Origin: Lobosporangium transversale
Lineage: Eukaryota
DNA: 64,000 nucleotides
Assembly (NCBI RefSeq): GCF_002105155.1
Contig: NW_019029001.1
Coordinates: forward strand, 124,001 to 188,000
Direction: 5' to 3'
Shown here: positions 50,394 to 51,745 of the stretch, piece after piece
How the letters are laid out: each line of letters starts with the position of its first letter
Numbering within the stretch: the first letter of the stretch is position 1
Translations under genes and position numbers: made by a program
The notes under the pieces: generated by a model
Database searches by the model: none
Told to the model about the DNA's origin: nothing
Seen by the model: only the letters and a program-made list of their open reading frames with translations

Positions 50394-51745
50394 TAGCCCG
50401 TTTCATTTGGTCACGATACCTTATATTTTTTAAATTGATTGAATAGACTCAAGCGAAAATTGAATTGTATTGAATAGCAACTCTAAATCCGATGTCGTTC
50501 GCTACTTGCAAGCTTGGCTCGCTGTCCTCTATTTGCACGCCGAGCGACGGAAGAGGTCAGTGGCTTTGACGTTGAATAACTGTTATGCGTCACTATGTTT
50601 TGCTTCCTTACCTTCACTCTAGCTCTCACGCAACACAATCAAACATGATGATCGTCAAATTCACAGAGTTCCATCAAGTAAGTAATAGACTATCTTTTTT
50701 TTATCATTTACCTGCGCTTCCTAATTATTTGTGAGTAATCTCTGGTTTCTTACGATGAATAGACGCGGAATCTTTCGATCCAATGAGAACATCGCAGCTT
50801 CCTTCTCCCTTTTCTTTTTTTTTGACCTTGGAGGTCGTTACAAGGAGACGCCAGATGTTCTGCTGATTCGAACTGGCCACTACCCATAGTGGGGAAACTT
50901 TTTGAGCAGGTCTTTGACCTTGTGCAAAAGTTTCAGCCCTCCGGTTTTAAAAAGATTCTGTCAAGCATCTGAGTCTTTTCTTTTTTTTATATTTTCTTTT
51001 TCTTTTTCTATGGCTGCTGAGGGATATACGAAGGGACGCCGGATGCTCTGCTGATTCGAACTGGCCACTACCCATAGTGGGGAAACTTTTTGAGCAGGTC
51101 TTTGACCTTGTGCAAAAGTTTCAGCCCTCCGGTTTTAAAAAGATTCTGTCAAGCATCTGAGTCTTTTCTTTTTTTTATATTTTCTTTTTCTTTTTCTATG
51201 GCTGCTGAGGGATATACGAAGAGACGCCAGACATCTCACTGATTCGTTAACTGCCCACTATTTATAGTGATGGAAACTCTTGGTCTTTGACCCTGGTTTC
51301 AGCAACCCAGTCGTATCGAATCTCAAGGGTTCTGGCTCTATTTCTTTTTTTTTTCTATTTTTTTTTTCCCCCTCCAAGACATGGTTCCGCCTTGGTTCTT
51401 GCTATCTCCTGCCAGCTCGCCAGGTCTGACCACAAGTTGCCGTCTGTTCTCCGTCGCGGAAAATGGATAATATGATTATTTTTTTGCATGGTATTACAAA
51501 CGCAAGGCCTTTATTCAAACCTACAACATGCAACTCGACATCGAGACCAATTTTAACCATCATATATACTCTGAAGTAATATTAGGCCAACCAAGATTTT
51601 ACCCATTCGCACACTCGGATTCTTAGCAGCTGTCGGGCCGCGGTTTTTGTCGAGGCGTGGATGAGGATATCGTGGGCAAGACTCTCAACAATGTTTATAT
51701 TTCGTTGGAATAACAAAAAGCATCAAGCATTAAAGTCGAATAACA
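50394..51745 (+). repeat. Left terminal inverted repeat (1352 bp)
   Basis: Reverse complement of 56025-57376; no mismatch found in the segments compared; mirrored identical 62-aa ORFs lie 893 bp from each end. Confidence 0.95.
50847..51370 (+). repeat. 188-bp tandem array inside the left TIR (2 near-identical units plus 1 diverged unit), hairpin-rich; mirrored at 56400-56923
   Basis: GACGCC unit starts at 50847, 51035, 51223 (period 188); each unit has stem-loops followed by a T-run. Confidence 0.9.

Follow-up and report, generated by a model that had tools for sequence, protein, structure and literature searches.

Terminal inverted repeats of the Sailor-Lobtra transposon of Lobosporangium transversale encode a spliced RNA with repeated, predicted Y-shaped folds beside a predicted cargo nuclease

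The 64,000-nucleotide stretch of Lobosporangium transversale DNA that we analysed (the window) contains a DNA transposon bounded by an inverted repeat of 1,358 nt (50391-51748 versus 56022-57379), the outermost letters of which are the TATA target duplication (Table 1). The element holds two proteins, a transposase and an intact predicted nuclease, which we refer to as the cargo, together with one RNA that has no long open reading frame and is encoded in the terminal inverted repeats (TIRs). Sailor-Lobtra has been published as a DNA transposon of this fungus in the DD82E/Sailor superfamily of IS630-Tc1-mariner (PMC8533490), and judged by its sequence the element in the window is Sailor-Lobtra, since the length of 6,979 bp, the TATA target site duplication (TSD), the GCCCG ends, the DD88E spacing and the 607-aa transposase all agree. 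The transposase spacer of 88 lies within the DD78-111E range of Sailor elements, and the TIRs and TATA TSD of that group are present as well. The transposase matches the domain DDE_3 with an E value of 8.7e-5, under the curated cut-off; among its close relatives, the named ones come from fungi of the Mortierellaceae and the Glomeromycotina.

Table 1. Coordinates of the features of the Sailor-Lobtra element in the window
Feature	Position	Strand	Details
Sailor (IS630-Tc1-mariner) DNA transposon	50396..57374	+	6,979 bp; TATA duplications 50392-50395 and 57375-57378
Left TIR	50396..51748	+	one mismatch versus right TIR, at 51746
Spliced TIR RNA	50650..51710	+	about 0.9 kb; ends approximate; longest ORF 29 codons
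Intron A	50678..50762	+	GT..AG, 85 nt; joint 50677-50763 in X6; mirror joint in X6 and X8
Unit 1	50843..50979	+	predicted closing stem 50843-50876 with 50941-50979; P2 50877-50892; P3 50894-50934; U-rich tract to 51007
Unit 2	51031..51167	+	predicted fold as unit 1; 4 differences, all pair-preserving; U-rich tract to 51195
Unit 3	51218..51344	+	predicted topology as unit 1; P3 12 nt shorter; rewritten 3' arm; U tract 51345-51367
Intron B	51491..51585	+	GT..AG; two acceptors 9 nt apart (ends 51576 or 51585); two X6 joints
30-bp direct repeat, inner TIR end	51708..51771	+	related GAATA words at 50441 and 50472 near outer end
Transposase	52132..53955	+	607 aa, intact; D244 D365 E454 (DD88E)
Cargo gene	54283..55998	+	5 predicted exons: 54283-54588, 54668-54876, 54964-55326, 55426-55655, 55730-55998
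Right TIR, mirror copy of RNA gene	56022..57374	-	units 56785-56927, 56597-56739, 56422-56551

The TIR is 1.35 kb here and is given as 1362/1354 bp, with DD88E in Table S3, in the published description, where the TIRs of most Sailor elements are 23-57 bp (PMC8533490, section 3.3). The accessible parts of that paper remark only on the extra-long size of the Sailor-Lobtra TIR, and within them we found no mention of a TIR RNA, tandem units or a cargo nuclease (PMC8533490). No publication on a TIR-encoded RNA or a cargo of Sailor-Lobtra was found in the literature covered, mostly openly accessible papers. The 30-bp direct repeat at the inner TIR end and the GAATA words near the outer end may be sites for the transposase, and these candidates are distinct from the units described below. 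Loose ends in the DNA runs, at 50393-50435 and 57335-57379, show that other elements share only the outermost ~45 bases of the TIR. In run X9 (bisulfite-type, same species label) every C, or every G on the other strand, is converted, CpG included, and conversion is complete in 10/10 listed element pieces between 50637 and 56312. We read this as an unmethylated element consensus, a state that could be genome-wide. A reading of the same changes as RIP-like mutation was dropped, since alteration of all C or all G is the pattern of bisulfite conversion.

The cargo gene has an open frame of 458 aa over predicted GT-AG exons, with a PD-x13-EVK motif and a C-terminal RKRKR; the PD..(D/E)xK pattern of nucleases is present as PDNLVMVDGLPLLVVEVK. 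Intron 4 is spliced in contigs of run X6 and in protein P0045 (100% over 123 aa). With P0044, a homolog of 58% identity, as query, HMMER run profile-free gave 66 proteins, 51 of which have a PD..ExK/N motif. All ten proteins that were looked up (nine of the 66, and P0002) are from Mortierellaceae, and homologs of the cargo family are frequent in Mucoromycota, with Atlas clusters of 56-155 members; a transposase motif is present in only 1/70 cargo-family proteins checked. The fold was modelled on P0044, a cargo paralog without the PD motif. The structures closest to the model (pLDDT 90.5) are nuclease domains, with Z 9.6, rmsd 3.4 and 136 aligned against DrdV and Z 8.6 against BpuSI. Foldseek returned no match to this model at an E value of 0.001 or better, and the cargo family is unclassified in Pfam. 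These comparisons predict that the cargo is a PD-(D/E)XK nuclease with the restriction-endonuclease fold. The third and fourth ranks among the structural matches are a mitoribosomal protein chain (Z 8.3 and 7.7), a reminder of the RNA-binding ability of such a fold. We detected no kinase or NTPase domain in the element. Two gene models of the same species combine a piece of Sailor transposase with cargo-related sequence, at 67% for the transposase and 50% for the cargo N-terminus in P0002 and at 54% for the transposase and 30% for the cargo homolog in P0110; the pairing of transposase and nuclease is therefore old.

Runs X6 and X8, like the other listed runs not on record as RNA, were taken as RNA because they contain GT-AG joints that are absent from the DNA runs X1 and X3. 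The initial annotation had placed transcripts pointing inward from both ends of the element, and in X6 the joints are indeed GT..AG on the inward strand of the left TIR, with a mirror joint in the right TIR. Introns A and B flank the array of units, and none of the five joints listed on the TIR in X6 skips a unit. One X8 contig (record 15) joins splice A to a complete unit 1 with no differences, although X8 carries another organism label and contributes two identical contigs at a depth of 3-7, which may represent carry-over and are not independent. Depth in the X6 contigs rises from 876 in the bin 50601-50641 to 43,298 in the bin 50642-50682 and falls after 51666-51707; it is lower within intron A, with little or none within intron B. 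At splice A it is 25,000 (an apparent ceiling) versus about 15 for the transposase and 10-20 for the cargo, values that hint at a highly abundant TIR RNA, with the proviso that the expression evidence for the TIR consists of assembled contigs of this one run and that contig depth measures level poorly. The excess of TIR depth in DNA run X1 is just twofold (110-133 versus 57-60). From the GT-AG introns we infer transcription by Pol II. The two acceptors of intron B leave a 22/25-codon ORF (51463-51626) in frame.

Two further X6 contigs bear on transcription around the right TIR. A host transcript reads into the insertion at its right end (57293-57392), where a minus-strand transcript of the right flank is spliced over the outer end of the element into the TIR (joint 57292-57393, CT..AC, depth 876). 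An 885-nt contig from a paralog (record 13; window 55437-56389) contains spliced cargo intron 4 and TIR sequence lacking ~97 nt at intron B, and intron B of this region is spliced on the strand opposite to the cargo; the convergent cargo and TIR transcripts probably overlap.

The spliced RNA contains the 188-bp tandem units from which this analysis started. TRF finds 2.1 copies of a 188-bp unit with 97% matches at 50842-51231 (mirror 56542-56928), and a diverged unit 3 starts 188 nt past the start of unit 2. Every sequence word named in the initial annotation was located in its place, and two of the proposed hairpins hold in unit 1 and are kept in unit 3, namely CCACTA/TAGTGG (P2) and GAAAC..GGTC-TTT-GACC..GTTTC (P3). 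When units 1 and 2 are folded alone, pair probabilities in P2 and P3 are 0.77-1.0, except for three A-U pairs at 0.31-0.66. The hairpins proposed for the two ends of the unit fared less well. The GCCAG..CTGGC stem has a probability of 0.00 in isolated units and no more than 0.01 within the spliced RNA, the AACCC..GGGTT hairpin of unit 3 has a probability of 0.00, and the AAAAGATTC..GAGTCTTTT hairpin is at 0.00 in isolated units but reappears within the whole spliced RNA at about 0.55 in unit 1 and 0.12 in unit 2. The isolated units disfavor these first and last hairpins because their segments pair with each other instead, giving a 5'-3' closing stem of ~30 bp with internal loops. Each unit is predicted to form a Y-shaped module of ~130 nt, composed of closing stem, P2 and P3 and followed by a U-rich tract.

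Whole-unit folds on the + strand have z values of -3.13, -2.53 and -3.13 for units 1 to 3, equalled by 2, 2 and 1 of 200 dinucleotide shuffles. The corresponding minus-strand values are -1.63, -1.38 and -3.10, so that unit 3 folds equally well on either strand. Taken alone, the 5' 82-93 nt, which carry the first three of the originally proposed hairpins, give z values of only -1.39 and -0.47. Within the whole spliced RNA unit 2 keeps the Y fold (0.82-0.85) and the closing stem of unit 1 has a probability of only 0.09-0.27, and an alternative conformation of unit 1 is predicted in the full RNA.

Substitutions between units and between element copies were then placed on this fold. Units 1 and 2 differ at four positions inside the fold and at one just outside it. 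A paralogous unit in X6 (record 20) has 14 changed letters and 4 gap letters, with the gaps located in one loop, the U5 run and an internal loop; 6/14 of the changed letters are listed (five at paired sites and one in the junction linker), and paralogous units are known from contig fragments only. The nine visible substitutions at paired sites touch eight pairs, and all eight are still paired on the + strand, one of them through a double change from U-A to C-G in the paralog contig. On the opposite strand, or as DNA, 7/8 of the touched pairs have one version that does not pair. The suggestion that the units conserve RNA-like structure and not just sequence is thus upheld for the inward-pointing strand. 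Loose ends from the paralogs in X1 and X3, mapped by eye, include a change at 50956 that closes a U-U mismatch, and a paralog loose end has G50973 changed to A, which breaks a pair of the closing stem unless an unseen partner has changed too.

The arms of the closing stem were also exchanged between units. For the 5' arm of unit 3, pairing to the 3' arm of the same unit gives -22.3 kcal/mol (reached in 1/1000 shuffles) and pairing to the 3' arm of unit 1 only -13.1 kcal/mol (150/1000 shuffles), and the reverse swap is free of cost, as the 5' arms of units 1 and 2 pair equally well with the 3' arm of unit 3. An alignment of the three units has 90.2% of cells paired, compared with 31-48.5% when it is slid. 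Formal covariation across the three units is not significant, with one double-change pair and that score matched in 161/500 shuffles. Taken together, we consider it likely that the RNA structure is real and under selection. Loops and stem length vary and the helices flanking the junction are kept, and this combination of variable loops with constant junction helices would fit a shape read by a protein better than a Dicer substrate of fixed length. The spacer at 50810-50881, which precedes unit 1 here, is found after the end of another unit in the X1/X3 paralog, showing that unit number or order differs among element copies.

The units resemble no RNA family in the collections searched. The Rfam search proposed at the outset gave no family match, the best score being 16.4 bits against a cut-off of 33, with E values of 1.1 or worse (ribozymes, snoRNA, SRP, VA, vault, Y and tRNA families), and ARAGORN found 0 tRNA genes. 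Inspection by eye against consensus sequences showed no CUGANGA adjoining P2, as a hammerhead would have, no L3 loop of an HDV-like ribozyme, and a CUGA near the 3' end that is lost in unit 3, against a C/D-box RNA. A scan for sigma-70 promoters and terminators was at chance level and is irrelevant to a fungus. The units had also been put forward as guide RNAs, a role not supported by the fold, in which the variable 3' arm is base-paired to the 5' arm; antisense matches of unit 20-mers in the rest of the window are no better than in shuffles. An RNA-guided nuclease of OMEGA or Fanzor-like type was rejected on the same grounds, together with the restriction-endonuclease fold of the cargo and the inward-pointing RNA.

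No homolog of the unit was found outside Lobosporangium transversale in Rfam or in viral and metagenome contigs, and strict searches with exact unit patterns gave 0 matches in viral contigs and 0 in metagenome contigs. A scan of metagenomes with the transposase recovered eight related Sailor loci. The unit is absent from 8/8 of these by covariance model, BLASTN of the unit against them gives nothing other than T-rich runs and matches of 19-32 nt, and they contain 0 cargo homologs by tblastn and 0 long inverted repeats. Six of the eight are under 2.5 kb and L007 stops inside the transposase, so that only L001 is informative; it is without both long TIR and cargo, which as a single case fits a joint presence of the RNA and the nuclease. 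At 11860-12700 of L001, a related Sailor transposase (48%) precedes diverged tandem repeats, three to four in number and 170-310 bp in size, that fold no better than shuffles (z -0.42 to +2.09). Tandem repeats with a 322-bp unit are located at 3784-4430 of L007, and a short-period array at 1094-1526 of L008, each in a contig with a piece of Sailor transposase.

As the best explanation we tentatively propose that the TIR RNA is an antidote holding in check the predicted nuclease of the element, a role that we regard as possible rather than likely and that agrees with the antitoxin or regulator of the cargo nuclease suggested in the initial annotation. Each TIR would supply one ~0.9-kb spliced RNA with three like-folded Y modules, making six modules per element, and this RNA would be in large excess over the mRNA of a nuclease that would be toxic to the cell. 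Neutralisation could take either of two routes, with the nuclease protein binding the conserved three-way junction or the TIR RNA acting antisense to the nuclease mRNA. Were the element lost or silenced, the RNA would be gone before the protein and DNA damage would ensue, and the transposon would thus be addictive; it may be speculated that in multinucleate hyphae an RNA retained in the nucleus would shield carrier nuclei alone. We arrive at this reading because an intact nuclease in the nucleus endangers its carrier unless something checks it, because the element has no evident gene for a protein antidote, and because the RNA is doubly encoded, apparently in great excess, with the junction repeated. 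Fungal toxin-antidote genes with nuclease-domain toxins have a precedent in Spok (PMC12693581). The overlapping convergent transcripts and the complementarity of the P3 loop word, described below, are hints of the antisense mode, and they feed equally a rival in which the RNA is a precursor of small RNAs. The more specific version, an addiction module in which the repeated Y-shaped modules bind a nuclear nuclease of restriction fold and thereby neutralise it, is in our judgment rather unlikely. Against the antidote, known RNA antitoxins of the type III kind bind RNases, not DNases.

The small-RNA precursor is a close rival of the antidote, and itself doubtful; the remaining explanations come after it. 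It holds that the spliced RNA is polycistronic and yields miRNA-like or hairpin small RNAs from the closing stem or P3 that silence host defence or element mRNAs. A non-coding spliced transcript with tandem imperfect stems of ~30 bp is what is asked of a pri-miRNA, the conserved 5' arm and rewritten 3' arm resemble a miRNA and its passenger, and the miR820 of CACTA elements, which silences a host defence gene, offers a precedent (PMC3459959). The P3 loop word TTGACCTTG is moreover antisense to the transposase (52676) and to the cargo (55797, 11 nt perfect, 17/20); a shared antisense word that long occurs in 25/1000 synonymous-codon shuffles and a 17/20 match in 5/300 dinucleotide shuffles. This match was, however, picked out post hoc among four unit-gene comparisons, 11-nt cargo matches alone are reached in 61 and 149 of 1000 codon shuffles, and the loop word is altered in a paralog unit; the 12-nt shortening of P3 in unit 3 and the large internal loops that break the closing stem also speak against a precursor. 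A Pol III origin, as in the originally proposed array of small Pol III RNAs, is very improbable; each unit would then be a gene of its own that stops at its T run, whether it lies within the spliced transcript or is made apart from it. The unit ends are runs of T8-T10, a closed 5'-3' stem such as theirs is typical of Pol III RNAs, and small RNAs would escape the contigs of a long-RNA library. The weak A- and B-box-like words to which the initial annotation drew attention do exist, with 2 mismatches to the A consensus and 2-3/9 to the B consensus, but only at chance level, as the rest of the window has 28 box pairs per kb with at most two misses in each box. The B-like word is degraded in unit 3, T5 and T4 runs lie inside units 1 and 2, and the units are exonic in the spliced RNA, with unit 1 seen inside it.

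Three other explanations dispense with small RNAs. An abundant RNA might act as a decoy, tying up Dicer, Argonaute or some other sensor of dsRNA, and the element would thereby escape silencing, in the manner of adenovirus VA RNA, which is a decoy-type RNA transcribed by Pol III. We think this quite unlikely: the apparent high level, the repeated closed 5'-3' stem with its U tail and the unmethylated element consensus in X9 are in its favor, but the TIR RNA is spliced whereas VA RNAs are Pol III RNAs, and the unmethylated state may be genome-wide. It is also unlikely that the TIR RNA serves the transposase, as scaffold, as inhibitor or in end pairing, or that the units are DNA sites whose RNA fold is incidental. 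The units are placed in both TIRs, and CTTTGACCTTG or a one-mismatch version of it occurs five times per TIR (50564, 50820, 50912, 51100 and 51285 in the left); its 9-nt core is found antisense once in each element gene (52676, 55797) and only once elsewhere in the window. Against a role for the units as transposase sites, substitutions favour one-strand G-U pairs, unlike DNA palindromes, and separate short repeats are present at both TIR ends. Most Sailor TIRs are short (23-57 bp; PMC8533490) and 8/8 related loci are without the unit, from which it follows that the unit is not needed by the transposase family. Last, the units could be a relic, a captured host or viral structured RNA that was duplicated in the TIR and is now functionless for the element, or the product could be a peptide of 14-29 aa. 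With no homolog found outside there is no argument for a purpose from conservation, and both intron B acceptors keep the 22/25-codon ORF in frame; however, the changes that keep pairs intact, seen from unit to unit and from one element copy to another, imply that the fold is selected within the element, and a captured RNA finds no Rfam match, making this improbable to a degree similar to the decoy.

Long TIRs are commonly viewed as platforms for transposase binding, and a spliced non-coding RNA gene within the TIR explains the unusual size of this element. In Sailor-Lobtra the TIRs hold a non-coding RNA gene of repeated fold, apparently under selection, beside an intact nuclease cargo. With one RNA and two proteins the element is a compact and defined system in which to look at antidotes, small-RNA weapons or decoys in eukaryotic DNA transposons. 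If the antidote reading is true, the element would represent a new kind of selfish toxin-antidote system in fungi and the TIR RNA a naturally occurring RNA that inhibits a DNase fold. If direct neutralisation by the Y modules is true, carrier nuclei would destroy non-carriers in multinucleate hyphae, and the addiction module would parallel, in a eukaryote, the type III toxin-antitoxin systems and bring a new class of nuclease-binding RNA.

Under the antidote reading, the TIR RNA and the nuclease would work like a type III toxin-antitoxin system or a Spok gene, by analogy, and would be a member of neither. The bacterial type III systems (ToxIN, CptIN and TenpIN) have tandem structured RNA units that are short pseudoknots. 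Shared with them are tandem structured RNA units near a nuclease gene, a mobile element, and an RNA apparently in excess. In contrast, the TIR RNA is eukaryotic and spliced, has units that are three-way junctions of ~130 nt rather than short pseudoknots, and matches no Rfam family; the nuclease has a predicted restriction-endonuclease fold and is not a ToxN, CptN or TenpN endoribonuclease; and the RNA is not co-transcribed with the nuclease but forms a spliced unit of its own that, at the right TIR, is transcribed towards the cargo. Adenovirus VA RNA, EBER and other Y-shaped Pol III RNAs are about 130-170 nt long, with a closed terminal stem, a branched top and a U tail. VA RNA and EBER share these four properties with the units, which differ in being exonic in a spliced RNA, in lacking valid A and B boxes and in having no Rfam match. 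Spok and the CR/Crinkler REase-domain proteins are likewise fungal nuclease-domain proteins linked to mobile elements, with a proposed role in genetic conflict, also in vegetative growth (PMC12693581, PMC5289972). In Spok, a kinase domain located in the toxin protein itself is the antidote (PMC12693581), whereas the candidate antidote here is an RNA. The miR820 gene of rice CACTA elements is similarly a regulatory non-coding RNA gene of a DNA transposon; it consists of one miRNA hairpin, for which a host target has been shown (PMC3459959), as against three branched modules in both TIRs of Sailor-Lobtra.
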